36,107 nucleotides of DNA from a virus: IMG/VR virus record IMGVR_UViG_3300025502_000077. The stretch is one strand, 5' to 3'. The translations under genes and the position numbers were made by a program. Shown here in pieces: positions 1 to 36,107 of this stretch (positions within the stretch are counted from its first letter, which is position 1; each line of letters begins with the position of its first letter). The notes beneath the pieces are model-generated. The model was not told where the DNA came from, searched no databases, and saw only the letters and a program-made list of their open reading frames with translations.

Positions 1-127
1 ACTAAGCTAGATGGCATTGAAGCCTTAGCAGATGTTACAGATGTAACCAACGTCACAGCCGCTGGTGCTTTGATGGACTCAGAGCTTACTAGCATTGCAA
101 GCGTTAAAGCTCTTGACCAAGGCGTAG
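1..127. repeat. Left copy of a 127-bp exact duplication (identical to 35981-36107); closure overlap of a circular or permuted phage genome
   Basis: Read directly: ACTAAGCTAGATGGCATTGAAGCC...CTTGACCAAGGCGTAG occurs at both window ends. Unique length is therefore 35,980 bp. Confidence 0.95.
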
Positions 128-3355: not shown

Positions 3356-6300
3356 ATGGGTCGTGGCAGAGGAAGACAAGAAGCAAGGCGACTTGCTGAA
3401 GAAGAAGCATTACGTAGACTAGCTGCTGGGACGGCTGTGCTGCCTCCTGTAACAGTTCTTCCTTTAGAAGCTCCAAGCACCGTAGCTAACCCTGTTAACT
3501 GGAAAAGCGCGGCTATTAACAAAGATGATAGTTATTTCTCTAGTCAATACGGTGTATATGGTTTAGACGCTCCTGATCCCGATAAAGAAAGCGAAACAGG
3601 TTCTATTGAGGCTGCTTTGTCTCGTTTAGCTAACGCGCCTCAAAGAGAAGCTAACTCTGCAATTTACAGCACGTTTACTGACGAAGAAAGAGTTCTCTCT
3701 ACGCAAACTAATCTTCTTAAAAAATACGGTATTACTTCTGCAAACATTGGTAATAAAGTTTTAACTGACGATCAGATGTTTGAGTTAACTTCTAAGTTAG
3801 ACAATGAAATTACAGACTGGCAGACAACTAACCTAAGCACTCTAGCGTCAGAAGATCCAGAAGCTTTTGCAGCAGAATACGGCAAGCTGTACGAAACATC
3901 ACAGATAAAGTTTTTAAGCTCCTTGTATGAGTCAGGCGCTTTAGATAAAGACGAATACTTAAACGCTTCTGCTCAGACTTTAATGGCAGGCGATAAATAT
4001 AATACAGATGTTTATATAATAGACAAAGGTAAATTGTACGCAGCTCCTTCTAACTCTGCAGGCAACCCTAATTTTTACAGTGAAGTTGTTTTGTTCCCTG
4101 ACCAAGCATCAGGCCAAAATCAATACAACACTTTTAACTATAAAATAGGAAGTCAGTCACCTACCTCTGATTTTGATGCGAGCGGTGTAACTAAGTTCTT
4201 AAATAGCGCTCCTATTAAGATGGCTGCTTCAATGTTGGGGTTACCTGGCGTTGCTGTTTTAACAGGCTTGAAAGCAGCTAACGGAGAGACTCTACACGCA
4301 GAAGACTGGGCTACTTTAGCTATAGCAGGTCTGGGAGAGGTGGCGCAGGCTAAAGGTTTTGATGCAGCAGAAGCAGGTTCTAAAGCAAACGTAGCTGGTA
4401 ACGCCGCTGTTGACTCTGCTATTGCGGAGTATAACGCATACGCTTCTGGGATGCCGGCTGGCACATTTATACCGCCGAATTACACTGCTGTATACGACGC
4501 AGCCTATAATTCTTCAATTGCAGCAAGTGGTGTTACAACTACTTTTATGGGAATTGATCTTGCTAAATTTGCAGAAAACGCTGATTTAAGCACTTCTGTA
4601 AGCCAGGATGTCTTAGACGCTGTCTCTGCTTTAGAAGATGCCGCTAAAGGTCAAGGAGACGGTGTTGTTTATAACTTTCTTGAGGATACAACAAACTCTT
4701 TAGGCGAAGACTTTAATGCTTCAAATATTGACCTTATAATAAGTGCTTTTGATACTGTTGTCAATGACAGGGTTGAAAGAGAAGCTAAAGCTGCTGAAGT
4801 TGCTAGGGTTGCTCAAGAAGCTAGAGTAGCAGAGGAAGCAAGAGTTGCTGAAGAAGCTAGAGTTGCTGAAGAAGCTAGAGTTGCTGCAGAAGCTAAAGCT
4901 GCAGAAGAAGCTAGAGTAGCAGAGGAAGCAAGAGTTGCTGAAGAAGCTAGAGTTGCTGCAGAAGCTAGAGCTGCAGAAGAAGCTAGAGTTATTAGGGACG
5001 CTGAAATAGCAGAAGAAGTTAGGGTTGCAGAAGTAGCGAGATTAGCTGAAGAAGCCGCTAAAGTTGAAAGAGAAGCCGCAGAAGAAGCTGCTAAATTAGC
5101 TGAAGAGGCTGCAAAAAAGGCTGAGGAAGAAGCTATAGCTAACGCTGAAGCAGAGAAACAAGCAGCCCTGGATCTAAAAGCTGCTGCAGAAGCTAAGGCA
5201 GCTCAAGAAGCCGCCGACAGAGCTGAAGCTGCTAGAGTAGAAGAAGCCAGGCTTGCCGAAGAAACAAGAGTTGCTGCAGAAGCTAAAGCTGCAGAAGAAG
5301 CTAGAGTAGCAGAGGAAGCAAGAGTTGCTGAAGAAGCTAGAGTTGCTGCTGAAGCTCAAGCTGCAGAGGAAGCTAGGGCTGCTCAAGAGAAAGCTGAAGA
5401 AGCTGCTAGAGTTGCTGCTGAAATAGCTAAAGCTGCTGAAGAAGAAGCCGCAGCAAACGCTGAAGCAGAGAGACAAGCTGTGTTAGATCTACAAGCAGAG
5501 GCAGACGCTAAGGCTGCTAGAGAAGCAGAAGCTAGAGCTGAAGCTGCCAGAGTAGAGGCTGCTAGAGTTGCTGAAGAAGCTAAAGCGGCTGCTGAGGCTA
5601 AAGCGGCTGCAGAAGCTAAGGCAGCCAAAGAAGCAGAGGAAAGAGCTACAGCCAAAGCTGCTGAAGAAGCGAGAGTTGCTGAAGAAGCTAGAGCTGCAAA
5701 AGAAGCTAAAGACGCCGCAGACGCTAAAGCTGCTGAAGAAGCTGCTAAGACAGCCGCTGAGGTTAAAGCTGCTGAGGAAGCTCAAGCCGCTGCTGACGCT
5801 AAAGCCGAAGAAGATAGAATAGCTGAGGAAGACAGAGTAGCAGAAGAAACTAGGCTTGCTAGAGTTGCTAAAGCTGCTGCAGACGCTCAAGATGCTGCTG
5901 ATGCTGTAGCTAAAGAAGAAGCTAGAGTAGCTAAGGAAGAAGCAGAAGAAGCTTCTAGAAGAGCTGCTGAGATTTCTAAAGCTGCTGAAGAAGAAGCTAA
6001 AGCAAACGCTGAAAAAGAGAAACAAGCAGCCCTAGACTTACAAGCTGAAGCAGACGCTAAGGCTGCTAGAGAAGCTGAAGCTAGAGCTGAAGCTGCTAGA
6101 GTTGAAGAGGTAAGAGTTGCTAAAGCTGCTGTTGATGCTGCTGAAGCTGCCAGAGTTGCAGAGGAAGCTAGAGTTGCACAGGCTGCTGCAGATGCTCAAG
6201 CCGTTACTGACGCTAGAGTTGCAGAAGAAGCTAGAGTTGCTGAAGAAGCTAGAGTTGCTGAAGAAGCTAGAGTTGCTCAAGAACTAGCTGACGCTCAAGT

Positions 6301-7396
6301 TGCTGAAGAAGCTAGAGTTGCTGAAGAAGCTAGAGTTGCTGAAGAAGCTAGAGTTGCTGAAGAAGCTAGAGTTGCTGAAGAAGCTAGAGTTGCTGAAGAA
6401 GAAGCTGCCGCTGCCGAAGTAACCATAACTGATCCAGCAACAGGCGAGGAGATAATAGCCACTCAGCCTGATCAAGTTGAAACAGAGCAGCCTCTGCCTG
6501 ACTTCGAGCTTGATGAAGAACCTATTGTCTTTGAACCACCTACGGACACTTCTGGAGGAGCAGCAGAAGGAGGAGCAAGTGCTGGAGGCGGGGCAGGTGC
6601 TGGTGGAGATGCAGGCGACAGTGCGCCAGTCTCTGATGACATAGTGTTAAGACAGGTGTACGAGGCCGTGTTAGCAGACGAGATTCCTATTGACGAGTAC
6701 ATTAGGATGGGAGGCAGGTTTGTCGATGAGCTACGAGCAGGAGTATCTTTAGAAGACGCTCAAGGTCCGTATGAAGAACCTATTATAGATGACACCCCTA
6801 TTGAGCTTGACAAGACTGGCGAGCCTCTAACTGAAGAAGGTCCGTTGTTCCCTAGCGACTTCTACGAAGATCCTACAGATTCTTCTGTAGGTTCTACAAT
6901 TGACTCAGATCCTGTAACAGTTCCAACAACAGGAACAGTAGACGAAGGTGTAGGCACAGGCGGTGTTGGTATGGATGGCTTAGACGGCCTTGATGGCACA
7001 GATGGTCTTGACGGTTTAGACGGTTTAGACGGCCTCGATGGCTTAGACGGCCTTGACGGAGCTGCTGGAGACCAAGGAGACCAAGGAGACCAAGGAGACC
7101 AAGGAGACCAAGGAGACCAAGGAGACCAAGGAGACCAAGGAGACCAAGGAGACCAAGGAGACCAAGGAGACCAAGGAGACACTGGCGAACAGGGGCTACA
7201 GGGCGAGAAAGGGGAACAAGGCATGATGTCACCTACTAGAACTACTGATATGGTGTTTGCAGACCTGTTTAAATCTAAAATAGACATTGGCAGTAACCAG
7301 GTAGTTTCTCCTTATGTACAGTTACAACAACGAGGCTTGCAAGCTCCTGCTCAGCAAGGAATGCTAACAAACTCTAACAATTTTAGAAGGCGATAA
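3356..7396 (+). CDS. 1346-aa hyper-repetitive structural-module protein: unassigned N-domain, ~550-aa Ala/Glu/Arg helical array, acidic linker, collagen-like (G-X-Y)29, short C-terminal domain
   Basis: Long uninterrupted ORF with a GAGGAA RBS 6 nt upstream. The coding frame is supported by non-repetitive flanks. It lies between the membrane-protein cluster and the tail-tubular genes. Confidence 0.9.
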   Translation: MGRGRGRQEARRLAEEEALRRLAAGTAVLPPVTVLPLEAPSTVANPVNWKSAAINKDDSYFSSQYGVYGLDAPDPDKESETGSIEAALSRLANAPQREANSAIYSTFTDEERVLSTQTNLLKKYGITSANIGNKVLTDDQMFELTSKLDNEITDWQTTNLSTLASEDPEAFAAEYGKLYETSQIKFLSSLYESGALDKDEYLNASAQTLMAGDKYNTDVYIIDKGKLYAAPSNSAGNPNFYSEVVLFPDQASGQNQYNTFNYKIGSQSPTSDFDASGVTKFLNSAPIKMAASMLGLPGVAVLTGLKAANGETLHAEDWATLAIAGLGEVAQAKGFDAAEAGSKANVAGNAAVDSAIAEYNAYASGMPAGTFIPPNYTAVYDAAYNSSIAASGVTTTFMGIDLAKFAENADLSTSVSQDVLDAVSALEDAAKGQGDGVVYNFLEDTTNSLGEDFNASNIDLIISAFDTVVNDRVEREAKAAEVARVAQEARVAEEARVAEEARVAEEARVAAEAKAAEEARVAEEARVAEEARVAAEARAAEEARVIRDAEIAEEVRVAEVARLAEEAAKVEREAAEEAAKLAEEAAKKAEEEAIANAEAEKQAALDLKAAAEAKAAQEAADRAEAARVEEARLAEETRVAAEAKAAEEARVAEEARVAEEARVAAEAQAAEEARAAQEKAEEAARVAAEIAKAAEEEAAANAEAERQAVLDLQAEADAKAAREAEARAEAARVEAARVAEEAKAAAEAKAAAEAKAAKEAEERATAKAAEEARVAEEARAAKEAKDAADAKAAEEAAKTAAEVKAAEEAQAAADAKAEEDRIAEEDRVAEETRLARVAKAAADAQDAADAVAKEEARVAKEEAEEASRRAAEISKAAEEEAKANAEKEKQAALDLQAEADAKAAREAEARAEAARVEEVRVAKAAVDAAEAARVAEEARVAQAAADAQAVTDARVAEEARVAEEARVAEEARVAQELADAQVAEEARVAEEARVAEEARVAEEARVAEEARVAEEEAAAAEVTITDPATGEEIIATQPDQVETEQPLPDFELDEEPIVFEPPTDTSGGAAEGGASAGGGAGAGGDAGDSAPVSDDIVLRQVYEAVLADEIPIDEYIRMGGRFVDELRAGVSLEDAQGPYEEPIIDDTPIELDKTGEPLTEEGPLFPSDFYEDPTDSSVGSTIDSDPVTVPTTGTVDEGVGTGGVGMDGLDGLDGTDGLDGLDGLDGLDGLDGLDGAAGDQGDQGDQGDQGDQGDQGDQGDQGDQGDQGDQGDQGDTGEQGLQGEKGEQGMMSPTRTTDMVFADLFKSKIDIGSNQVVSPYVQLQQRGLQAPAQQGMLTNSNNFRRR
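4771..6418 (+). repeat. Coding repeat array encoding the EEARVA-type helix (hexapeptide units, three larger super-repeats, long exact duplicates)
   Basis: There is an exact 83-nt duplicate at 4877-4959 and 5267-5349 (offset 390 nt). The block ...AEEEA(I/A/K)ANAE(A/K)E(K/R)QA(A/V)LDL(K/Q)A... recurs three times, at about 5116, 5440 and 5988. Confidence 0.9.
6218..6401 (+). repeat. 18-bp tandem repeats GTTGCTGAAGAAGCTAGA (3 copies at 6218-6271, first copy has one substitution; 5 perfect copies at 6299-6388, plus a partial copy)
   Basis: Counted directly in the sequence; each unit encodes VAEEAR. Confidence 0.9.
6959..7222 (+). repeat. Collagen-like G-X-Y tract (29 triplets), including a perfect 9-bp microsatellite GGAGACCAA x12 at 7067-7174 (GDQ)
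   Basis: Triplets read GGV GMD GLD GLD GTD (GLD)x6 GAA (GDQ)x12 GDT GEQ GLQ GEK GEQ. The GLD codons vary synonymously, whereas the GDQ units are nucleotide-identical. Confidence 0.9.
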
Positions 7397-15099: not shown

Positions 15100-15133
15100 A
15101 AAAAGCCCTATAGAATCTCTCTATAGGGCTTTT
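15100..15133. terminator. Bidirectional rho-independent terminator between the convergent operons
   Basis: AAAAGCCCTATAGA-ATCTC-TCTATAGGGCTTTT: a 14-bp perfect stem (including A/T ends) that gives a U-tract on both strands. It sits between the stops at 15097 (+) and 15174 (-). Confidence 0.85.
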
Positions 15134-21333: not shown

Positions 21334-21363
21334 ATTATACCACACAAACTTTAGAAAAGTCAA
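21334..21363 (-). promoter_or_regulatory. Sigma70-type promoter (middle) for the SSB-to-nrdJ block
   Basis: Minus strand: TTGACT-N18-TATAAT with TGg extended -10. The -35 overlaps the polymerase stop. It is followed by the 7-bp-arm palindrome TAGATCAcaacTGATCTA (21311-21328). Confidence 0.6.
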
Positions 21364-23003
21364 TGTGTTTCTGCCCAATTGTTACCTATGTTGAACTCAC
21401 CATCCAGAGGGCAGCGCAGATCGAAGTGCTCACCTGCTTTCTGAATAGCTTTTACTGCTACCTTGCCTACTGCCTTAGCGAAGTGCTCTGGCGTTTCCAC
21501 TTGAAATTCATCATGTACGTTAGCCACAATCTTAAAAGGTATCCCGCGAGCTGTCAAGCTGTCTGACAATATTATCAACGCTTGCTTCATTACTATAGCG
21601 CCTGCACCTTGCAGCAGTGTGTTGAGTGCTGCGTGTTGTGACCTGACTCTTAGTCGTCTGCCGTCAAGACCCTGTAGAGTGCCTGAGAGGGCCAGTCTAG
21701 CCACTTTGTCACGGAGCTTAGCCAATGCTGGCGTGTTGCGTAGAAACGCCGCCATGAGCTGCTGTCCTTCCTTGTAACCACCTTTAACAATCTCGCCTAT
21801 CTTAGCCGGCCCTGCGCCGTACAGGAAAGCGTATATAAATGTCTTCGCCTGGTTGCGGTCCGTAAGCCCTGCTGCCTTCATATTAGCAGTGTGTATGTCA
21901 CCGCTTAGGATCTCGTTGGTGTACTTGGTGTCTCGCATGTAATGTGCCAGCATACGTAGCTCTAAACCACTGGCGTCTATACCTACTAGCTTGTAACCAT
22001 GCGGTACAGTCCAGAAGGATCTACACTCTTTACCATACGGCGCTGTCACTGACGGAACTTGAGCCATGTTAGGGCTGAGATGTGTCATTCTACCTGTCAC
22101 AGCGCCATTAGTGATGACTCTACCATGCACTCTGCCGTTCTTCTCGAAGGATAACCAGGAATCTATCTGCGCTGAGCGCTTCTGCAGCATAAGATACTCG
22201 TAAATAACCTTAGCTTCTGGAATGTCAATACCTTCAAGCACTTTTTCGTTAACAATTACAGAACCTTTCTCAGTTTTCTGAGAGAATATAACACCTGCTT
22301 CTGCCAACCTCTCCGCTATCTGCTTCCGTGACCCCACATTGAACTCTGTTACCTTGTCCTTCAGCTGCTTTCCCGTCTTCTCCGACCATCTCTCTTCCAC
22401 TATCGGTGGAAACACCTTCTGCAGGTCTGTTGTTATCGTTCGCATCCTGTGAGTTATCGTTTGGTAGAGGGATGTCGCCCCACTGACGTCTAGTACGAAA
22501 CCATTTCTCTCCTGAACCGCCGTAATGATGGCGACCTTGTGCTCTAAATCTACGCATGTGTCGATGAAATCCTCTTGTTTAAGCACGTTAAGCAAATGTG
22601 TATACAGTCTAGTGGTTAAAGCTACGTCCTGCTTGCAATAATCTATCATCTCATCGGATAGACCAGCATTGTAGTCTGAAAAGTCAAGCTTTAAATCACC
22701 AAATCTCTTGCCCCAGCTATCTAAACTGTGTCCACCTTCCAGGGGAGGGTTATACAACCTGCTGAGGACTAAAGTATCTATCAACTGATTGTCTGGTAGC
22801 TGTAATCCCCACACGTTTGCAAGCACTGGGGCGTCGAATCCTATGATATTGTGACCAATTACACCTGTTGCCTCACGTAATACAGGTATAAGAGTGTCTG
22901 GAGAAGTGTGAACAAGCTGTTTGCCTGTCTTGACTTCCTCAGTTACTCCGCACCAGATCGTATCGTGGTCGGTGTTGGTCTCTAAATCTAGTGTAATCAA
23001 CAT
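21360..23003 (-). CDS. Family A DNA polymerase with 3'-5' exonuclease domain (547 aa, T7 gp5-like but compact)
   Basis: Exo motifs DLET, HNIIGFD and YCKQD. Pol motif A is DASGLELRMLAH, motif B is RNQAKTFIYAFLYGAG, and motif C is VHDEFQVE. Confidence 0.9.
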   Translation of the reverse strand: MLITLDLETNTDHDTIWCGVTEEVKTGKQLVHTSPDTLIPVLREATGVIGHNIIGFDAPVLANVWGLQLPDNQLIDTLVLSRLYNPPLEGGHSLDSWGKRFGDLKLDFSDYNAGLSDEMIDYCKQDVALTTRLYTHLLNVLKQEDFIDTCVDLEHKVAIITAVQERNGFVLDVSGATSLYQTITHRMRTITTDLQKVFPPIVEERWSEKTGKQLKDKVTEFNVGSRKQIAERLAEAGVIFSQKTEKGSVIVNEKVLEGIDIPEAKVIYEYLMLQKRSAQIDSWLSFEKNGRVHGRVITNGAVTGRMTHLSPNMAQVPSVTAPYGKECRSFWTVPHGYKLVGIDASGLELRMLAHYMRDTKYTNEILSGDIHTANMKAAGLTDRNQAKTFIYAFLYGAGPAKIGEIVKGGYKEGQQLMAAFLRNTPALAKLRDKVARLALSGTLQGLDGRRLRVRSQHAALNTLLQGAGAIVMKQALIILSDSLTARGIPFKIVANVHDEFQVETPEHFAKAVGKVAVKAIQKAGEHFDLRCPLDGEFNIGNNWAETH

Positions 23004-23098: not shown

Positions 23099-23296
23099 TT
23101 ACCTATCTTGCTCATTGTCATCCACCATTGGTTCAAAGTCTGACTCCGATTTTAAGTCTATCCTGTCAATCGTGTCAATATCTTCTGATGTGTAAGCGCA
23201 ACAACTGTTGCATAAATCCAGGAAAGTCCCAGACACTGCAGACTTACGTGTCGCTTCAAAGTCTGATAGAGCTACGTTACAGGCTAAACATCTCAC
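23099..23296 (-). CDS. Small zinc-ribbon protein (65 aa)
   Basis: CLAC...CNSCC cysteine pairs; acidic C-terminus; coupled to the primase-helicase stop. Confidence 0.55.
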   Translation of the reverse strand: MRCLACNVALSDFEATRKSAVSGTFLDLCNSCCAYTSEDIDTIDRIDLKSESDFEPMVDDNEQDR

Positions 23297-24906
23297 AAGG
23301 CTTCCTCCATAATTTCTGACATTCTACCGCTTTCTTGGTTATAGAGCAAGCCCGCTGCCCGTCCTGTAATACCTGCAAAGCGATTCTTCAGAATTCTTAC
23401 GTGGGTTGTGTTGCGTTCTATTGGGTCAGCTGCCTGGCCGTTCCTTTCAAGCCCTATCACCATGTCAGATAGCTGAGCTATAGATGCTGAGCCTCTGAGC
23501 TGTGACAGTGAACTAGCAGCACCTTCCTCGTGACCCTTGCCGTCTGGTCTCTTCAAGTGGCTCACCATAAACAGCGTGATGCCTGTCTCTTGAACTAGCA
23601 TCCTGAGCTTGGTGCAGATCTCATCCAGTGCCTTACGTTCGTCGCCGTTGCTCTGAGCTGATACAACAATAGAGACATGGTCTAGGAACAAGAACTTGGT
23701 GTCCAGCGCTTTTGCCATGTAGCGACAGCGGGCAACAATGTTATCGATACTGGTGCTTCCAAAGTGGTCAAACAAATACAAGCGGTTAGTGCCCATAGTT
23801 TTCTCGAAAGCATCCCAGCGTTCCTCCTCTGTAGTCTCTACTGTTGGTAGGTGTATAGGCTTGTTAGCTGCTAGTGACATAAGCGAAAGAGCTGTCTTAC
23901 GTGCGTTCTCTTCCAGGAACAACAAGCCAATGTTTTCTTCTGAGTTCTGCAGTATGTGCCAGACTATCTCTCTGACAAACTGAGACTTACCCAGTCCAGA
24001 ACCTGCAGTAATTGTAACTAGCTCTGCCTCTCTGATGCCGTAAGTAAGCTTGTTAACACCTGCCCAGGGATACATCACTGCAGCAGTCTCTACTGGCCTG
24101 TTCACTTCGTCCCAAAGACTAGCGCCGTTGATGATACCGTCTGGAACAAATCGCTCTGCAGCCCAGAAGGATGCTATATAGGCTCTGTCGTCGTCCTGGA
24201 GTAAGAAGTCGCAAGCGTCTTTGTACTGGCTCGGGTACTTCATCACCTTAGACTTGCCGCTGAACAGCTCAGCAACCTCTCTGGCAGCCTTAATGCCTGG
24301 CTCATCGCTGTCAAAAGAGATAACAATGGTGTCGAAGGTGTCTAGCCACTCGTAAGCGGCCTTACAGTCGCCTAGAGCGCCGCTAGAGCCGTTCTTGATA
24401 CTGACTACAGGGAACTTGCTCCCCTGCATCTGGTAGCTCGCCAGGGCGTCGAATTCGCCTTCTGTTATTGTGACAGTCTTACCACCTTTACTGAACAAGT
24501 GCTGGCCGAACAGTCCAGAATCTTCCCAGTTACCCACCTTGTAGAATCGCTTGTCGTGCTGACGGATCTTGGAAGCTATCGGCGTGTTCGCATCGTCCGG
24601 TGAATGATAGCTGAAATAGGTCTTATCTGGGTTGTGAATGACGCCATATTTCTTAGCAGTCGCCGTTGTAATACCTCTCTCAGGTATAGCGTTATAGCGT
24701 CCAGTAGTAAGTAGGTTCTCTATTGATTCGAAGCTCTGCTTAGGGCGTGGCGTTTCCTCTATGTCTGGCATTGTAATAGCGCCGCTGTTGTCGCCCTTCT
24801 GAAAGTCGCCGCAGCTAAAGCATTTCTTTGATCCGTTCTCGTTGATAGCCGCTGCGTCTGACGAGCCGCAAGCATCACAGGGTAGGTGCGTCTGAGTAAA
24901 TGCCAT
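23293..24906 (-). CDS. Bifunctional primase-helicase (T7 gp4-like, 537 aa)
   Basis: N-terminal Cys4 zinc finger (CDACGS...CFSCG), TOPRIM (TEGEFDALA, FDSDEPG), and a DnaB-type Walker A GSGLGKSQF with Walker B LFLDHV. Confidence 0.9.
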   Translation of the reverse strand: MAFTQTHLPCDACGSSDAAAINENGSKKCFSCGDFQKGDNSGAITMPDIEETPRPKQSFESIENLLTTGRYNAIPERGITTATAKKYGVIHNPDKTYFSYHSPDDANTPIASKIRQHDKRFYKVGNWEDSGLFGQHLFSKGGKTVTITEGEFDALASYQMQGSKFPVVSIKNGSSGALGDCKAAYEWLDTFDTIVISFDSDEPGIKAAREVAELFSGKSKVMKYPSQYKDACDFLLQDDDRAYIASFWAAERFVPDGIINGASLWDEVNRPVETAAVMYPWAGVNKLTYGIREAELVTITAGSGLGKSQFVREIVWHILQNSEENIGLLFLEENARKTALSLMSLAANKPIHLPTVETTEEERWDAFEKTMGTNRLYLFDHFGSTSIDNIVARCRYMAKALDTKFLFLDHVSIVVSAQSNGDERKALDEICTKLRMLVQETGITLFMVSHLKRPDGKGHEEGAASSLSQLRGSASIAQLSDMVIGLERNGQAADPIERNTTHVRILKNRFAGITGRAAGLLYNQESGRMSEIMEEAL

Positions 24907-24907
24907 T

Positions 24908-25117
24908 TTAAATTTCCTCTATGTCGTATACGTAACCGTAAGAAATAATAAGGAACGGCAATAGTAGAATAAGACCGTCCATCGGCATAACCGTAGTCTC
25001 ATCTGTTTCCGTGTTGTAAACCCAAACAGGTCTAGATTCTACAGCCTCCAGGTCAAACAGGCCAACACCCATTCGGAACTCTATTGACAACAATCTATCG
25101 AATATCCACCATCTCAT
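24908..25117 (-). CDS. Hypothetical protein with a C-terminal hydrophobic segment (69 aa)
   Basis: Coupled ORF; LILLLPFLIISYGYV. Confidence 0.45.
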   Translation of the reverse strand: MRWWIFDRLLSIEFRMGVGLFDLEAVESRPVWVYNTETDETTVMPMDGLILLLPFLIISYGYVYDIEEI

Positions 25118-25311
25118 TATTTTATACCTCTGTTAAATTTATCATACTCTCGCATCTCTTTAAGAAACTGACTAAGTGCTTCAGTGTCCACCGCGTACAG
25201 TCTAGCAGCGTCTAATAAAGATAACAACCCGCCCCCAACATCATTGGCAGCTCTCAACAGCGCCATCGTGTACGGCGTCAGTGCGCCACTTGTCATATAT
25301 TGTTGAAACAT
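25117..25311 (-). CDS. Hypothetical protein (64 aa)
   Basis: ORF with a weak RBS; first gene after the 146-bp intergenic element. Confidence 0.45.
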   Translation of the reverse strand: MFQQYMTSGALTPYTMALLRAANDVGGGLLSLLDAARLYAVDTEALSQFLKEMREYDKFNRGIK

Positions 25312-25325
25312 AATTATTCGCCTGG

Positions 25326-25353
25326 TTGACAGTGTTTTTAATGTGACTATAAT
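25326..25353 (+). promoter_or_regulatory. Near-consensus sigma70 promoter pointing rightward (antisense) inside the leftward early operon
   Basis: TTGACA (25326-25331) - 16 nt - TATAAT (25348-25353), read directly. No + strand ORF follows. Confidence 0.6.
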
Positions 25354-25457
25354 AGATCTCTAGAGACCGCTAGTTATCTTTTAAAGCTCTTCAGAGGTTA
25401 ACAACAAGTAGTAGAAGCTAAAACCCTAAAAGAGCTCTAAAAGGTCTCTATAGAGCC

Positions 25458-25703
25458 TTAGAATCTTCTGCTAACGCTCTGCGCTAACTGGTCGTTTAAG
25501 TCCGCTAACATCTCTATATCATCCGCATCGGGTACAAAGTTTCTGTCACTCTCTAAAAACTTAAGATTCACCGCTAAGTCATTAGCCAGCATAAAAAAGT
25601 CTTCTCGCGCCTCTTTTGCGTATTGCTTCTGTAGTTGCTCTACCTTGTCGTTATCGTCTAGGTGTTCGTCGCCGTGTAGCCAACTATGGTCTTTACTATA
25701 CAT
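25458..25703 (-). CDS. Hypothetical acidic protein (81 aa; start trimmed)
   Basis: ATG at 25703 preceded by AGAGAGAGGT. The track start at 25757 would overlap the upstream gene. Confidence 0.5.
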   Translation of the reverse strand: MYSKDHSWLHGDEHLDDNDKVEQLQKQYAKEAREDFFMLANDLAVNLKFLESDRNFVPDADDIEMLADLNDQLAQSVSRRF

Positions 25704-25735
25704 GGTGTTACCTCTCTCTGTTGTTTGTTTGTCTA

Positions 25736-26005
25736 TTATAGCGCAATACGCAACCATTTATCAGACTCTCGCATTTCTTTATTCTCTAACCTGTTCTCTA
25801 GCTCCTCTCTGCGCCTTGCTAACGGCCCTATAATAGGCGGACCGCTCGGTCTAACGTCTCGCTCTGTGAAGTCTTTCTTGTAGCGTAGGCGGCTGTGCAG
25901 TGTTGACTTGTTGATCTCTGTTATTAGGTGAAGCGTCGGTATAGTGTAATAGGCGTTTGCAACCAGGCGCGGGTGATCTCCTATAAACTTAAAACTTTTA
26001 TTCAT
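25736..26005 (-). CDS. Small protein with a possible helix-turn-helix (89 aa; start trimmed)
   Basis: ATG at 26005 preceded by AGAGGAAA. The segment TLHLITEINKSTLHSRLRYKK looks HTH-like (weak). Confidence 0.4.
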   Translation of the reverse strand: MNKSFKFIGDHPRLVANAYYTIPTLHLITEINKSTLHSRLRYKKDFTERDVRPSGPPIIGPLARRREELENRLENKEMRESDKWLRIAL

Positions 26006-26077
26006 AATTTTTCCTCTATGACTCGATAGATGTTCATTAGTGCACCGCAAACGCTATTACGTATATCGCTGGTTGAA

Positions 26078-26242
26078 TCATGATCCCCATCTCGCCACCA
26101 TGCCCCATTGTATGGCCATTACAAGCGCCGCCACTGCTACCACTAAAGCTAGGACTAGTACAGTCTCTGCGACTATTAGTCGTAGCTGTTCGCGTCTCTG
26201 TGCCGCCTTGAATGCCTTGTTGCCTTTGTATATATGTAACAT
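26078..26242 (-). CDS. 54-aa single-TMD membrane protein; not in the supplied ORF track
   Basis: Hand translation: MLHIYKGNKAFKAAQRREQLRLIVAETVLVLALVVAVAALVMAIQWGMVARWGS. It starts 2 nt after the upstream stop. The + strand ORF 26040-26345 is its shadow. Confidence 0.45.
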   Translation of the reverse strand: MLHIYKGNKAFKAAQRREQLRLIVAETVLVLALVVAVAALVMAIQWGMVARWGS

Positions 26243-26243
26243 A

Positions 26244-26441
26244 TTATTCTACTCCCTCTATAAAGGTGTTGATTATCTGTTGGCTTTGATCTGTCACGTT
26301 GTATACGGTTACGGTCGTTATTCCATCGTCGCCCGTTGCGCTTAGCGTGTGGCCTGTCAGGGTAGCCCGCGCCCAGTACTTAGTGAACTGTTGAGCTAGT
26401 GCCCTGTTGTTGAATGTTAGCGTTGCGTCCATGTTATACAA
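26244..26441 (-). CDS. Hypothetical protein (65 aa)
   Basis: Coupled ORF in the early operon. Confidence 0.5.
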   Translation of the reverse strand: MYNMDATLTFNNRALAQQFTKYWARATLTGHTLSATGDDGITTVTVYNVTDQSQQIINTFIEGVE

Positions 26442-26724
26442 CCTCTCTTGCGTCTATGATTGACTCAATGTCGTTCTCTAAGTTGAAGCTAGTAGTCACA
26501 AAACCGCCACCGAATTCCTTACCACGGTACACCTTAAAACCTAGCTTATTAGCTCTCTGCTTTGCTATGTCGTAGTCGCCTATGCCTAGCTCATCATCAC
26601 GGAGAAAAGCGAGGTAGTGCGTAACGTAACGCGGGTTGCCGTTGCTGTCGTTGTTGACTCTATAGAAAGAATCATTGAACTGAGCTTCCAGGTCGGGGCT
26701 GATGTAACATTTTTGATTGTTCAT
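26434..26724 (-). CDS. Hypothetical early protein (96 aa)
   Basis: AGAGGT RBS; the motif NDSNGNPRYVTHY...FGGGFV looks conserved, but I cannot name the family. Confidence 0.55.
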   Translation of the reverse strand: MNNQKCYISPDLEAQFNDSFYRVNNDSNGNPRYVTHYLAFLRDDELGIGDYDIAKQRANKLGFKVYRGKEFGGGFVTTSFNLENDIESIIDAREVV

Positions 26725-26748
26725 TGTGTGACCTCTATTGTTTGGTGT

Positions 26749-26774
26749 GCCCCTTGCGGGGCGCTGATTAGTCT
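26749..26774 (-). repeat. Copy 1 of a 26-nt repeat carrying a GNRA-tetraloop hairpin (mRNA sense AGACTAATCAGC-GCCCC-GCAA-GGGGC)
   Basis: Identical 26-mer at 26953-26978; each lies upstream of the RBS of an early ORF. Confidence 0.8.
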
Positions 26775-26822
26775 ATAGTGCTGCGCGGATGTGTTCGCCA
26801 TCAATTTCTAGCTCCCAATATT

Positions 26823-26915
26823 TCATAATATACCGCCTATTGTAGTGAGTTCAAGGGTGACCAGCAGCACGCCTAAGAGCGCTACGATCCAAGTGAGTGC
26901 AAGTAATTCTTTCAT
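26823..26915 (-). CDS. Possible 30-aa hydrophobic peptide
   Basis: MKELLALTWIVALLGVLLVTLELTTIGGIL; GGAG 10 nt upstream. Very short, so uncertain. Confidence 0.3.
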   Translation of the reverse strand: MKELLALTWIVALLGVLLVTLELTTIGGIL

Positions 26916-26952
26916 GCTATTGTTCTCCTTTGTTTGTCTGTTTGTTTGCTTG

Positions 26953-26978
26953 GCCCCTTGCGGGGCGCTGATTAGTCT
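26953..26978 (-). repeat. Copy 2 of the 26-nt hairpin repeat
   Basis: Identical to 26749-26774 (offset 204 nt). Confidence 0.8.
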
Positions 26979-26993
26979 TACTGTTTCAACTGT

Positions 26994-27140
26994 TTAGTCG
27001 TAAGGATAAATTATATCCTCTTTGATAATATAGTCCGTGAGGTTGTGCTCAGATATTATCTCCATTATCTGCCCTTCAGTTGCAGCGGCACCAATGTATT
27101 GACCATTAGCTATCAGTATATAAATCGTCTGCTCTATCAT
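26994..27140 (-). CDS. First early ORF (48 aa), hypothetical; not in the supplied ORF track
   Basis: MIEQTIYILIANGQYIGAAATEGQIMEIISEHNLTDYIIKEDIIYPYD; AGGAG 7 nt upstream of the ATG at 27140. Confidence 0.45.
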   Translation of the reverse strand: MIEQTIYILIANGQYIGAAATEGQIMEIISEHNLTDYIIKEDIIYPYD

Positions 27141-27205
27141 TTTGTTAGCTCCTGCACCGTTTTGGTGCGTTTATTTGTTTATGTCTTTCACTTCTTGATG
27201 GTTCC

Positions 27206-27233
27206 ACTATATAGAATGCAAGCAGGCAGTCAA
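27206..27233 (-). promoter_or_regulatory. Leftward early promoter candidate (sigma70)
   Basis: Minus strand: TTGACT-N16-TATAGT, about 65 nt upstream of the first early ORF. Confidence 0.55.
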
Positions 27234-27262
27234 GTATTTATATATACCGTAATAGCATAAGC

Positions 27263-27292
27263 ATATAACCATTAGGACACACCAGGTGTCAA
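27263..27292 (-). promoter_or_regulatory. Second leftward promoter candidate (perfect -35, weak -10)
   Basis: Minus strand: TTGACA-N18-TTATAT. Confidence 0.35.
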
Positions 27293-27402
27293 TAGCCTAC
27301 AGTGCTAACGATCCAGGTCTTCATAAGCTGCAGTGATATAGGTGGGGGTGCTGGGTGGTCTGTATAGTACCACTATAGACTCTCACTCCTCACTCTACAG
27401 CC

Positions 27403-27422
27403 TGTGGATAACCTGTGGATAA
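27403..27422. promoter_or_regulatory. Two tandem perfect DnaA boxes (TGTGGATAA = complement of TTATCCACA), 11-bp phasing
   Basis: CCTGTGGATAACCTGTGGATAAC read directly. A degenerate third box TGTTGATTA lies at 27564-27572. Confidence 0.75.
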
Positions 27423-27691
27423 CTATAGAGGTGGGTGTTCTTTAGAGGCCGGGGAGGGTCTGGGGTGTGCGGAGATTGTTACTGTACCCGCCTAGATACA
27501 AAAAAGGGTCAAATTAGAACAATAATAACAAGGCAGTAGACAGTCTGTGTAGTCCTTGTAAGCTGTTGATTACTATAGAGAATAAGGGCGGGGCTGCGGA
27601 GTCTCTAGGGCTGCTGAGATCCGCTGATGAAGGGACGGGGATGTATGTAACAGCCCTATGTAATTTATTTACTCTATATAGTAATCTCTGC

Positions 27692-27720
27692 TTGACTTTT
27701 GCTCTAAAATATGCTATAAT
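27692..27720 (+). promoter_or_regulatory. Rightward (late/structural) sigma70 promoter
   Basis: TTGACT (27692-27697) - 17 nt - TATAAT (27715-27720) with TGc extended -10. Confidence 0.7.
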
Positions 27721-27722
27721 AG

Positions 27723-27734
27723 ACTCTATAGAGT
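27723..27734. promoter_or_regulatory. 12-bp perfect palindrome ACTCTATAGAGT at the predicted transcription start (operator candidate)
   Basis: Lies 2 nt after the -10. The related CTCTATAGAG is at 25446-25455 and TCTCTAGAGA at 25357-25366. Confidence 0.5.
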
Positions 27735-27883
27735 TAAGTAAGAGACCTTTTAAAGACTTGATAGAGACCCTAAAAGAATAACTACTTTCAACTTCCAGTA
27801 GTTGTTCTCGTAGAAACCCTAAAAGACATTAAAAGATCTCTTGTTTAACTAAACAGAACTTTATAGACTATAGAGGCAATTCT

Positions 27884-28264
27884 GTGTCTGAGAACAAAAG
27901 AGTAGGCAGGCCCTCAAAGAAGGATGTTTCATCTGTTAAGAAAGGTAACAGGAATTCTGTTGGTAGACCCAAAGGGGATGCTGCTACAATCAATGAGTAC
28001 AAAGCACGTATGCTTGCATCTCCTAAGAGTAGGAAGGTGTTAGACAGTATCCTCAATGCAGCTCTTGATGACGATCACAAGAACCAGGCAGCAGCATGGA
28101 AGTTGTGTATGGATCGTTTGTTACCTGTTAGCTATTTCGAGAAGGATAAGGCTGGAGGAGGCAGAGGCGCTATCAACATATCTATTACTGGTGTTGGTGG
28201 TGAGACTACTGTTATCTCAGGCGGTGAAGAAGACATAGAAGAGGGTAACTATTCAGATGTATGA
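27884..28264 (+). CDS. Putative small terminase / DNA-binding protein (126 aa, GTG start)
   Basis: Basic N-terminus with two GRP(S/K)K motifs, then ...AAWKLCMDRLLP, resembling DUF5681/TerS-like proteins. It lies upstream of TerL. AGAGG RBS. Confidence 0.45.
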   Translation: MSENKRVGRPSKKDVSSVKKGNRNSVGRPKGDAATINEYKARMLASPKSRKVLDSILNAALDDDHKNQAAAWKLCMDRLLPVSYFEKDKAGGGRGAINISITGVGGETTVISGGEEDIEEGNYSDV

Positions 28265-35827: not shown

Positions 35828-36107
35828 ATGGCAACAAAAATTGTAACTAAAAATAGCTCCACAGCTTCGAGCGTACCTACAGCAGCGCAGCTTGTTCAAG
35901 GAGAGCTGGCGGTCAACGTAGCGGACAAGCGGCTATATACTGAAGATAACGCAGGTGCTGTTGTTTTGCTGGCTGACGGCACTAAGCTAGATGGCATTGA
36001 AGCCTTAGCAGATGTTACAGATGTAACCAACGTCACAGCCGCTGGTGCTTTGATGGACTCAGAGCTTACTAGCATTGCAAGCGTTAAAGCTCTTGACCAA
36101 GGCGTAG
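35828..36107 (+). CDS. Tail fibre protein, N-terminal part (continues at nt 128 via the duplicated junction)
   Basis: The ATG at 35828 gives MATKIVTKNSSTASSVPTAAQLVQGELAVNVADKRLYTEDNAGAVV..., a conserved fibre N-terminal motif. It is in phase with ORF 1-1833. Confidence 0.85.
   Translation, partial: MATKIVTKNSSTASSVPTAAQLVQGELAVNVADKRLYTEDNAGAVVLLADGTKLDGIEALADVTDVTNVTAAGALMDSELTSIASVKALDQGV
35981..36107. repeat. Right copy of the 127-bp exact duplication (identical to 1-127)
   Basis: Same string as 1-127. The offset of 35,980 keeps the reading frame of the fibre ORF. Confidence 0.95.

Follow-up and report, generated by a model that had tools for sequence, protein, structure and literature searches.

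Plasmid countertranscripts start at a strong opposite-strand promoter within the leader of a replication-gene mRNA. Among temperate phages, the antisense RNAs P22 sar, lambda OOP and PaQ are 69-77 nt long. The early polycistronic mRNA of T7 has RNase III processing hairpins and no opposite-strand promoter. In late or early operons of lambdoid phages (lambda PR'-6S RNA/qut, HK022 put), a strong constitutive sigma70 promoter is followed by a structured non-coding leader, and paralogous copies serve two transcription units in HK022. The PeSL cassettes of T4-like phages are co-oriented with the genes, have the stem-loop before the promoter, and are present in many copies per genome.

The plasmid countertranscripts include CopA/CopT of R1 and RNAII of pMV158 (PMC5415839, PMC4485353). 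Temperate-phage RNAs of the P22 sar, OOP and PaQ type lower expression of the gene that they overlap (PMC5415839, PMC12197685). PeSL motifs, a promoter and stem-loop repeated at junctions of conserved and swapped genes, have been proposed as crossover points for gene swapping (PMC2839356, PMC4122927). Start sites have been mapped for 20 phage antisense RNAs (PMC10914365), and there are mapped antisense RNAs in other lytic Pseudomonas phages (PMC10914365; PAK_P3, PMC4933390). In phiKMV-like phages, a conserved antisense promoter (P001 of LUZ19) lies in the early region, and the authors suggest that it keeps transcription out of the early genes at middle and late times (PMC10914365).

We analyzed a DNA of 36,107 nucleotides from an uncultured marine phage (IMG/VR record IMGVR_UViG_3300025502_000077), here called the window. 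It contains a promoter that faces backwards at the head of the replication genes and is followed by a hairpin-forming element; we refer to the two together as the cassette. The phage is distant from cultured phages. A search of GenBank phage DNA with 24900-26100 gave no match, and the closest cultured relatives by protein were Pelagibacter and Roseobacter podophages (43-52% for helicase and polymerase). Cyanophage capsids were ~30-34% identical in the protein search, and the 69-aa protein encoded near the cassette had no match. As a clue to the host, CTAAAAGGTCTCTATAGAG was scanned against 185,579 species genomes, with 0 hits. Among the scanned ORFs we found no integrase or repressor gene, no Q-like protein, and no phage RNA polymerase that might read the T7-like ACTATAGAG motifs described below. 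Three large ORFs in the structural region had no family match.

Sequence and conservation of the backward-facing promoter

We found that the promoter matches the sigma70 consensus at 12/12 positions. The -35 hexamer, TTGACA (25326-25331, plus strand), is followed 16 nt downstream by the -10 hexamer, TATAAT (25348-25353, plus strand), within the 16-18 bp separation that we used to define a sigma70-type promoter. This is the sole exact match to TTGACA-N16-18-TATAAT on both strands of the 36.1-kb window. Dinucleotide shuffles of the window gave an expectation of 0.01 such matches, the same value (~0.01) as in the earlier note, made from the sequence alone, that had first drawn attention to this plus-strand promoter.

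The promoter lies in a gap between two minus-strand ORFs (25117-25311 and 25458-25757) that measured 146 bp, as reported before. The earlier note had placed it inside the early operon, but the head of the replication-gene block fits better. A distance of 14 nt separates the -35 from the start of the 64-aa gene at its initiation codon (25117-25311, minus strand); this gene is the first of that block and is followed by the 69-aa gene and the primase/helicase gene (23293-24906, minus strand). The cassette adjoins the ribosome-binding site of the 64-aa gene. On the minus strand of the gap, the promoter scan found just weak (9/12) matches that might serve the replication genes.

On its other side, the cassette faces a gene for an acidic protein of 81 aa (25458-25703, minus strand). 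This gene was listed as a 99-aa ORF from 25757 and probably starts at the ATG at 25703, which is preceded by a strong ribosome-binding site and by a promoter for this gene. That promoter, CTGATA-18-TATAAT (25735-25764, minus strand), points at the cassette. The 81-aa gene is wholly enclosed by the two convergent promoters, whose predicted start sites are ~370 bp apart. In L116, L113, L128 and L089, the other relatives from group A that were examined, the convergent promoter is CTGACA-18-TATAAT; in L006 and L117 it is TTGACA-16-CAGAAT. Near-consensus promoters were also found at operon beginnings at 27692 (plus), 32389 (plus), 21363 (minus) and 27233 (minus), as well as at 25764 (minus), and their presence at these places indicates that the host of the phage uses sigma70-type promoters.

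We found that a transcript from the cassette would be antisense to genuine genes. The earlier note had stated that no plus-strand ORF follows the promoter. Short plus-strand ORFs (41-101 aa) do occur there, but the coding signal is on the minus frames. Substitutions relative to the relatives were mainly at third codon positions of the minus frame for ORFs 25458-25757 (166/95/210), 25736-26050 (135/66/293) and 26434-26724 (59/49/251), and the last of these matches Pfam PF24229. Since these data identify the minus strand as the coding strand, the antisense orientation proposed earlier was borne out. The small neighboring proteins had no Pfam, PHROG or PDB sequence match, and there was no candidate regulator among them. 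One of 104 aa has a stretch that resembles a helix-turn-helix, judged by eye only; its single-sequence AlphaFold model was poor (pLDDT 60).

We found that the promoter is conserved in most lineages of relatives, which were collected through the helicase gene alone. An antisense sigma70-type promoter is present 190-420 nt upstream of the helicase gene in most lineages, down to ~58% helicase identity. In the three closest lineages, the -35 TTGACA is invariant in 8/8 distinct helicase-derived sequences, 5/6 of the -10 positions are invariant, and the spacer is 16 nt throughout. A 13-nt block that begins with the -35, TTGACAGTGTTTT (25326-25338, plus strand), is unchanged in groups A and B and L006; the nine spacer bases next to the -10 vary freely in the closer lineages. 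Among 31 distinct sequences, the -10 is TATAAT, TAAAAT or TACAAT alone (position 3 varies). Antisense promoters also occupy this position in lineages whose helicases are 58-69% identical: TTGACA-17-TAAAAT (L055), TTGACA-17-TAAACT (L056-59 and L063/66), TTGACT-17-TATTAT (L048/49/52) and TTGATT-17-TATAAT (L050). In most of these lineages, though not in L048 and L050, the -35 is within ~5-15 nt of the ribosome-binding site of the first replication-block gene.

A strong promoter is not universal in the clade. Group D, an abundant lineage (77% helicase identity), has a TG-extended TACCCT as its -10 and a variable -35, and L041 and L044 had no promoter match of at least 10/12. The earlier note had made its proposal depend on conservation of the hexamers in relatives, and in the closer lineages the hexamers and the 16-nt spacing are fixed. 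By these sequence comparisons, the exact promoter match is not due to chance, and the promoter is almost certainly functional.

The hairpin element and its resemblance to the late-operon leader

The predicted start site, at ~25360-25362, is the center of a palindrome, TCTCTAGAGA (25357-25366). The ~100 nt that follow (25360-25457, plus strand) form the body of a predicted non-coding transcript. The predicted minimum-energy fold of this body is a long imperfect hairpin with nested helices. In the outer helix, TAGAGACC (25361-25368, plus strand) pairs with GGTCTCTA (25443-25450). In the inner helix, ATCTTTTAAAGCTCTT (25376-25391, plus strand) pairs with AAGAGCTCTAAAAGGT (25430-25445), including the complementary stretches AGCTCTT (25385-25391) and AAGAGCT (25430-25436). 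An apical block, CAACAAGTAG (25402-25411, plus strand), is unchanged in groups A and B and L006. A second palindrome, CTCTATAGAG (25446-25455), ends 2 nt short of the point where the stop codon of the convergent gene (81 aa) begins. The start-site palindrome and the two helices described previously were all found at the coordinates given for them. There is a dyad at the position of the start site in every lineage, with lineage-specific arms. Its symmetry is unexplained by a model in which only the RNA matters, since the left half would escape transcription.

The nested hairpin that the earlier note had drawn is the predicted fold of the plus strand, but it is only moderately more stable than shuffled sequences (-26.6 kcal/mol, z -2.1). 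The minus strand is predicted to fold more stably (-38.6 kcal/mol, z -3.0). This difference might indicate that the element works in the minus-strand mRNA, as an RNase III-type processing site, a partial terminator or a 3' stabilizer after the 81-aa gene, and that the promoter is secondary. The position of the 3' palindrome on that strand, directly after the stop codon and followed by UUUUAG, is consistent with such a role, as is the shorter element that group D retains despite its degenerate promoter. However, the late-operon leader, which is transcribed from the plus strand, is likewise more stable on the minus strand, so the asymmetry reflects base composition; for the same reason we dropped fold energy as a guide to the functional strand. 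A role in minus-strand RNA also leaves the conservation of hexamers and spacing unexplained, and a terminator scan of the window found no terminator-like site at the element on either strand, the hairpin there having no U-tract. We judge a minus-strand role to be quite improbable.

Compensatory changes across lineages were seen in the inner helix. Changes on both sides were found in 5/13 of its core pairs, and its covariation score was 0.191, compared to 0.092 in shuffles (0/500 shuffles reached 0.191); these values come from an arm-anchored pair count on an alignment assembled from the two arms and represent few independent events. In group A the outer helix has a 5' arm that does not vary, which accounts for the lack of covariation there, and other lineages pair in another register. 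Of the covariation check that had been proposed, the inner helix provided compensatory pairs and the outer helix did not. RNAalifold on a MAFFT alignment gave a near-zero-energy consensus that was not useful, because the arms were one column out of register and the lineages differ in architecture. Hairpin energies are weak in group C, L048, L056 and L063.

Searches for known RNAs were negative. Rfam 15 gave no match at the gathering score for the whole window and chance-level hits alone at E<=5 for 25000-28000, and a tRNA scan of the window found none. Complementary targets of the CAACAAGTAG loop within the window were at chance level only. The UUUUAG repeats led us to consider a solitary mimic of a CRISPR repeat (an RNA anti-CRISPR), an idea that we set aside. 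Taken together, the sequence comparisons support the view that the ~100 nt after the promoter are a conserved, hairpin-forming, non-coding element.

In some lineages, the element looks like a complete transcription unit. The L055 promoter is followed by a 25-bp hairpin, and this in turn by GACTCTATATAGAGTC and T6. In group C, the equivalent 3' hairpin is followed by a U-rich tract. Both cassettes resemble an RNA unit of ~85-100 nt that is ended by a terminator-like hairpin. The output of the terminator script is only indicative, since the same script missed a hairpin at 27153-27179.

We found that the cassette resembles the beginning of the late operon. The late-operon promoter, TTGACT-17-TATAAT with a TG extension (27692-27720, plus strand), is followed by a leader (27722-27886, plus strand) that begins with CTCTATAGAG at the start site, at the same offset as TCTCTAGAGA at the cassette promoter. 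The leader can form a long hairpin (~27732-27850; -45.3 kcal/mol, z -5.2) and has motifs in common with the element. The parts match one by one: promoter, start-site palindrome, hairpin leader and second palindrome. A profile search of the window with the module found two copies only, the cassette and the late leader. In local alignments of cassette with late leader, z was 8.9 (group A), 6.0 (B), 13.6 (C) and 4.8 (D) within lineages, and mostly 0.3-4.8 across lineages. The segments that resemble each other differ between lineages, and the core of the start-site palindrome is identical at both promoters in groups A, B and D and in L066. On this evidence the cassette is a shortened paralog of 27692-27886, the promoter and leader of the late operon, and within each lineage the two copies co-evolve. 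Neutral gene conversion could be the source of the within-lineage similarity.

The similarity might also mean that the hairpin RNA is itself the product. It would then imitate the late leader in trans, as a mimic or decoy, and titrate or share a lineage-specific factor that recognizes the late-leader hairpin. This factor could be RNA polymerase, as for antitermination RNAs that act in cis, or a protein. The higher resemblance within than across lineages would be expected from such sharing. Late leaders in all lineages form very stable long hairpins (-42 to -58 kcal/mol) despite differing sequences, the cassettes of L055 and group C look like discrete terminated RNAs, and the apical block is invariant in groups A and B and L006. 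However, the block is missing in group C and L055, the similarity may stem from gene conversion, no Rfam family was matched, and there is no candidate for the factor, the small flanking proteins matching no family. We consider a trans-acting product unlikely.

A comparison with a close relative, L001, raised a further alternative, that the cassette is mainly a crossover point for swaps of early genes or a neutral leftover of the duplication. L001 and the window are 100% identical in helicase and 97% identical in the cassette, but their 81-aa proteins are only 56% identical, and the mosaic breakpoint is exactly at the end of the 3' palindrome (25446-25455). Early-gene content is mosaic among close relatives. 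Yet the two copies in each genome are direct repeats, so recombination of one with the other would cost the phage its early genes, its early promoter and its DnaA-box region. Decay of a neutral leftover would not have preserved a perfect promoter across lineages. We regard these explanations as highly improbable.

A possible brake on early and replication genes

Our preferred reading, which we put at somewhat short of an even chance, is that this late-type cassette damps early and replication expression through a cis-antisense hairpin RNA and convergent transcription. Host RNA polymerase (sigma70-type) would start at the junction of the early and replication blocks, against the surrounding genes. 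The product would begin at ~25360 as a non-coding RNA whose first ~100 nt are the long imperfect hairpin. Because start-site and leader elements are common to both, we infer that the cassette is governed like the late promoter. It would act in cis on the minus-strand transcripts that have to cross it. Polymerases from the cassette would meet head-on those from the promoter at 25764-25735 and from the early promoter near 27233-27206. The RNA would be a perfect complement of the intercistronic leader that lies immediately 5' of the first ribosome-binding site of the replication block and, if unterminated, also of the 81-aa gene. As an outcome, expression of the early genes and the replication operon would be damped or shut, as by a countertranscript-like brake at the early-to-late switch. 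The sequence, its conservation, the paralogy and the geometry are observed directly; transcription, its 3' end and its regulatory effect we infer from them.

The 3' end is relevant to one alternative, that the cassette is an auxiliary upstream promoter whose transcripts reach the late operon after crossing the early region and the origin. The cassette and the late operon have orientation and leader architecture in common, and most relatives have no obvious plus-strand terminator between the two. In the window, however, a good terminator-like hairpin with a T-tract (27153-27179, plus strand) intervenes and is a possible end of a long antisense transcript. This makes read-through to the late operon, as the earlier note had envisaged, doubtful here. 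The hairpin is present in the L008 lineage and missing in L001, L116, L089 and L006; being missing in most relatives, it was rejected as a general conserved end of a long antisense RNA. An auxiliary late promoter would also require head-on passage through two active minus-strand promoters, the late operon has a near-consensus promoter of its own, and L055 and group C seem to terminate right after the hairpin. We think an auxiliary late promoter very unlikely.

A replication function is another alternative: transcription from this orphan promoter might open the duplex or prime DNA synthesis. Analogues are the primary origin of T7, the T7 phiOL and phiOR promoters, and RNA II of ColE1. The cassette is always immediately upstream of the primase/helicase block, its promoter has no gene 3' of it, and the transcribed part is A+T-rich with inverted repeats. 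Its late-operon paralog lies next to clustered, perfect DnaA boxes and repeated T7-like ACTATAGAG motifs. But the origin is more obviously placed in the DnaA-box region (27340-27690), a stretch conserved in groups A and C, and DnaA boxes are missing from the cassette. The turning points of GC skew track the switch in gene strand, and 25.3 kb does not stand out. An origin-type role seems to us rather improbable.

The brake proposed as our preferred reading would matter for a common group of phages. T7-supergroup phages that lack an RNA polymerase of their own are common marine phages, and we know of no description of how they time their early, replication and late genes. The conserved backward host promoter is a concrete, testable candidate for a timing device in such phages. 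A broader suggestion, doubtful as it stands, is that this whole clade of uncultured marine phages, in which the replication genes are of the T7 type and no gene for an RNA polymerase was detected, achieves timing with host polymerase only, by means of a duplicated late cassette. One copy would drive the late operon. The truncated copy, whose resemblance to the late leader is maintained within each lineage, would face backwards where the replication genes begin, such that the signal for late genes would at the same time trigger an antisense hairpin RNA directed at early and replication transcripts. If true, such a switch would be self-contained and would operate partly at the RNA level, without a known protein regulator. 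The brake itself, if real, would mean that a lytic phage controls its replication genes in countertranscript style. Since the cassette is short (~130 bp) and its promoter is consensus, it is testable in E. coli or in vitro without the phage host. If it is merely another antisense promoter, it adds a well-supported comparative case to a class known mostly from a few model phages.

Comparison with known systems

Antisense control in phages is already known as such; the arrangement at this locus is new. The cassette is like P001 of LUZ19 in being a conserved opposite-strand promoter near the early region of a lytic T7-supergroup podophage. In contrast to P001, which serves the single-subunit RNA polymerase that the phage itself encodes, the cassette promoter is a perfect host sigma70 consensus. 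It also differs from P001 in its position at the head of the replication block and in its paralogy to the late-operon leader.

Several features of other systems recur in part. Like the T7 RNase III sites, the element is a long imperfect hairpin between cistrons of a phage with a T7-type replication module, although cleavage here is only putative. Like PeSLs, the cassette is at a junction of swapped genes, with the breakpoint at the 3' palindrome (window compared to L001). Unlike PeSLs, it has the promoter first, facing backwards, and two copies per genome. Compared to the lambda and HK022 leaders, it has one long hairpin and not two short stem-loops, there is no Q-like protein, and antitermination would be hypothetical.

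The RNA predicted for the cassette is most readily compared with regulatory antisense RNAs. As with P22 sar, OOP and PaQ, the opposite-strand promoter is in or beside an intercistronic region and the predicted RNA is short and structured. Those RNAs have defined terminators and a role in lysis-lysogeny, and the cassette has no sequence or Rfam similarity to them. As with the plasmid countertranscripts, a hairpin RNA of ~50-150 nt would be complementary to a leader just upstream of a ribosome-binding site, and a terminator-like hairpin ends the cassette in L055 and group C, though not in the window. In contrast to the plasmid systems, the regulation proposed here is only predicted, the element belongs to a lytic phage, and the targets would be primase/helicase and polymerase rather than an initiator. 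The link of the cassette to a late-operon leader has no counterpart in the plasmids.

A conserved probable antisense promoter ahead of the replication genes

We found that the plus-strand sigma70 promoter described in the earlier note, TTGACA-16-TATAAT at 25326-25353, is the sole exact match to both consensus hexamers on either strand of the window. It lies, as described, in a 146-bp gap between minus-strand genes, and shuffled sequences gave an expectation of 0.01 such matches, the figure that the note had estimated. We refer to this promoter and the ~100-nt hairpin-forming stretch that follows it, to 25457, as the cassette.

The window is a circular assembly of a phage genome of ~35,980 bp. 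The same 127 bases open and close the window (1-127 = 35981-36107) and the overlap falls within a gene, so the window ends are not physical genome ends. Plus-strand genes run from ~27.9 kb via the window end round to 15.1 kb and encode a peptidase or endolysin-like protein, the large terminase, portal, major capsid and tail proteins. On the minus strand, genes extend leftward from 27.14 to 15.17 kb. Several small ORFs of no assigned function come first; downstream, a 64-aa gene and then a 69-aa gene head the replication genes, which include a T7-type primase/helicase (23293-24906), a family A DNA polymerase (21360-23003) and, after it, an exonuclease, HNH endonucleases and ribonucleotide reductase. 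No RNA polymerase gene was detected in the window. The host evidently uses sigma70-type promoters, because the other near-consensus promoters of the window are placed at operon starts. A DNA search with 24900-26100 found no match among GenBank phages; the nearest cultured relatives are marine podophages, with replication proteins 43-52% identical.

Several other features of these operons were seen. Where the late and replication operons converge there is a strong bidirectional terminator (15101-15133; AAAAGCCCTATAGA..TCTATAGGGCTTTT), with CTATAGA in its stem. Between the helicase and polymerase genes, a 65-aa protein (23099-23296) has a C-x2-C-x22-C-x2-C zinc-ribbon pattern; it matches no family, and its cysteine spacing recalls small phage transcription factors. 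A tail-associated ORF (3356-7396, 1346 aa) contains extensive internal tandem repeats (4744-6412, 64-89% identity), alongside which GC skew and AT skew are unusually high (5-7 kb).

Relatives were gathered via the helicase protein alone, making the search independent of the promoter. All nine loci with a helicase at least 90% identical and the upstream region present have the element. Among their eight distinct sequences nothing changes in the -35 or in five of the six -10 positions, and every spacer is 16 nt long, while the nine spacer bases adjoining the -10 vary. Two further pattern scans brought the total to 31 distinct cassettes (three groups and one singleton). The metagenome pattern left the -10 unspecified, yet each of its 30 hits shows one of three hexamers (TATAAT, TAAAAT, TACAAT) at the correct distance. 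An antisense promoter was found once more, 190-400 nt upstream of the helicase, in distant helicase-derived lineages with 58-69% identity (TTGACA-17-TAAAAT, TTGACA-17-TAAACT, TTGACT-17-TATTAT and TTGATT-17-TATAAT). The distance from the -35 to the ribosome-binding site of the first replication-block gene is within ~5-15 nt in most of these lineages, the exceptions being loci L048 and L050. Group D, an abundant lineage with 77% helicase identity, has a shorter element whose promoter (TTGTCA-17-TACCCT, TG-extended) is weaker, and loci L041 and L044 have no promoter match of 10/12 or better. Judged by these comparisons, the cassette promoter is very likely functional.

The predicted antisense RNA and its proposed target

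Transcription is predicted to start near 25360, ~7 nt past the -10, within the palindrome TCTCTAGAGA (25357-25366). This palindrome and the helices noticed earlier (25361-25368 with 25443-25450; 25385-25391 with 25430-25436) exist, and folding prediction gives the nested hairpin as the minimum-energy structure (plus strand, -26.6 kcal/mol, z -2.1). The minus strand folds at -38.6 kcal/mol (z -3.0). A processing or terminator hairpin in the minus-strand RNA would fit part of the evidence; a scan of the window's cassette found no terminator on either strand and no U-tract.

The inner helix pairs 25376-25391 with 25430-25445 on the plus strand (CUUUUAnnn with nnnUAAAAG) and has compensatory changes: at one position C-G is replaced by G-C, and two other positions show G-C, C-G and A-U. 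Both sides changed in 5 of 13 pairs, and covariation was 0.191 compared to 0.092 in shuffles (reached by 0/500), although independent events were few, our alignment was put together from the separate arms, and a DNA inverted repeat would behave alike. The outer helix is invariant within its own lineage and has a different pairing register in others. An apical block, CAACAAGUAG (25402-25411, plus strand), is invariant in three lineages, and a second palindrome, CTCTATAGAG (25446-25455), ends 2 nt short of the convergent gene's stop codon. Common to all lineages are a start-site dyad and, 70-100 nt farther on, a palindrome of the CTATAG type. In the related locus L055, the promoter is followed by a 25-bp hairpin, GACUCUAUAUAGAGUC and U6, the predicted layout of a canonical terminated small-RNA gene; the element of group C likewise finishes with a hairpin resembling a terminator. 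The element matched no Rfam family.

The earlier note held that no plus-strand ORF follows the promoter. Short plus-strand ORFs do occur downstream, but the minus frames are the coding ones. Substitutions between the window and its relatives concentrate at third codon positions of the minus-strand frames, and one minus-strand ORF of the region is a Pfam match, so a plus-strand transcript would be antisense and non-coding. By sequence the cassette fits the definition of a sigma70 promoter and by position that of a cis-antisense RNA gene, with the terminator and structure of a cis-antisense RNA seen only in part.

A minus-strand promoter lies at 25764-25735 (CTGATA-18-TATAAT), followed by a leader rich in CA; a strong ribosome-binding site then precedes an ATG at 25703. 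The ORF listed as 99 aa is probably an 81-aa gene that starts at this ATG and has its own promoter, because the listed start (25757) falls upstream of that promoter. The promoter is kept in group A, the lineage of the window, and a related one occurs in loci L006 and L117. Its predicted start and that of the cassette face each other ~370 bp apart, with the 81-aa gene in between. We found no convincing minus-strand promoter within the 146-bp gap; therefore, polymerases would reach the replication genes by reading through the cassette from the right. The predicted cassette RNA would be a perfect complement of the intercistronic leader, and the match would end upstream of the 64-aa gene (25117-25311), ~35 nt short of its ribosome-binding site.

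The gene adjoining the cassette (window 25458-25757; 5157-5438 in the related locus L001) has divergent alleles, with 56% protein identity between window and L001, and its flanking genes are 95-100% identical between the two. A 104-aa early protein (25736-26050) has a stretch, TIPTLHLITEINKSTLHSRLRYKK, that is helix-turn-helix-like by eye; it had no family match and its single-sequence structure model was poor. This protein is a candidate for binding the palindromes. Farther upstream, two copies of a 37-nt repeat (26738-26774 and 26942-26978, 92% identical; hairpin GCCCCTTGCGGGGC then GCTGATTAGTCT) are intergenic, ahead of early cistrons, and an unlisted minus-strand ORF between them (26823-26915) encodes a membrane-like 30 aa.

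Resemblance to the late-operon leader

The late operon has a plus-strand promoter at 27692-27720, TTGACT-17-TATAAT with a TG extension. Downstream of it, CTCTATAGAG (27724) stands at the same offset as the cassette's start-site palindrome. The late leader of the window forms a long predicted hairpin (-45.3 kcal/mol, z -5.2), as do late leaders in all lineages (-42 to -58 kcal/mol) despite differing sequences. Leader and cassette have in common AGAGACC..CTTTTAAAG, ACCCTAAAAG and TAAAAGrTCTCT. When the cassette minus its promoter was used as a profile, the only matches in the whole window were the cassette (E 9e-22) and the late leader (E 2e-4, 6e-3). In groups A, B and C the order is kept: cassette, 2-4 kb of small minus-strand genes, minus-strand early promoter, DnaA boxes, late promoter. 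An auxiliary late promoter would explain part of these findings.

Similarity between cassette and late leader is higher within lineages (z 8.9, 6.0, 13.6, 4.8) than across them (mostly 0.3-4.8), and the matching segment changes from lineage to lineage. The start-site palindrome core is identical at both promoters in groups A, B and D and in locus L066, and in several lineages the cassette promoter spacer resembles the late promoter spacer too. The higher within-lineage similarity, the shared core and the similar spacers indicate that the two copies are kept alike, via selection for a shared factor or signal or via gene conversion. A decoy RNA that has a factor in common with the late leader accords with some of the evidence, as does a recombination cassette.

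The late promoters of the window and of L011, L041, L044, L111 and L066 were compared. The 17-nt spacer (27698-27714, TTTGCTCTAAAATATGC) is conserved across lineages with diverged leaders (pattern near TtTGCT..aAAA.tATGC), and all have a -10-like hexamer, either TAGAGT, TATAGT or TAGATT, within ~10 bases of where transcription begins, on the transcribed side. These features are reminiscent of the binding site and sigma-dependent pause element found in lambdoid late promoters; no protein resembling Q was found.

Between the diverging operons, 27.24-27.69 kb contains two perfect DnaA boxes (TGTGGATAA; 27403, 27414) and repeated ACTATAGAG motifs. Four direct ACTATAGA(G) motifs are at 27372, 27422, 27572 and 27867. 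The non-coding region 27340-27880 is likely an origin or regulatory hub. The cassette as an origin or primer promoter would also be consistent with part of the evidence. CTATAGA, found 19 times in the window (6.3 expected), is like the initiation region of T7/SP6 promoters, yet no phage RNA polymerase gene was found in the window. A plus-strand terminator-like hairpin (27153-27179; TGCACCGTTTTGGTGCG then TTTATTTGTT), common only to the window and the lineage of locus L008, lies in the 5' UTR of the first minus-strand early gene and would stop a 1.8-kb antisense RNA just short of the early promoter.

Proposed function and known systems

We think that the cassette is a copy of a late-type promoter that points backwards where the replication block begins. 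Its effects would be in cis: head-on collision with incoming polymerases, and a hairpin antisense RNA against the replication-operon leader. If left unterminated, this RNA would be antisense to the 81-aa gene as well. A backward late-type promoter accounts for the promoter conservation, the fixed position and orientation, the late-region resemblance and the terminator in some lineages. It leaves unaccounted the symmetry of the start-site palindrome (the left half would not be transcribed), the weak promoter of group D and the absent 3' end in the window.

Phages are well known to have antisense promoters and small RNAs of the antisense type (PMC5415839, PMC12197685, PMC10914365). We rejected identity with PeSL, from which the cassette differs in orientation, part order and copy number (PMC2839356, PMC4122927). 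The cassette resembles plasmid countertranscripts (PMC5415839, PMC4485353) and an antisense promoter that phiKMV-like phages conserve in their early region, for which the authors of that study suggest a role in blocking transcription into early genes (PMC10914365). New here are that the element is conserved across a clade of uncultured marine podophages apparently without an RNA polymerase of their own, that it abuts the replication operon, and that it is a paralog of the late-operon leader with which it co-evolves.
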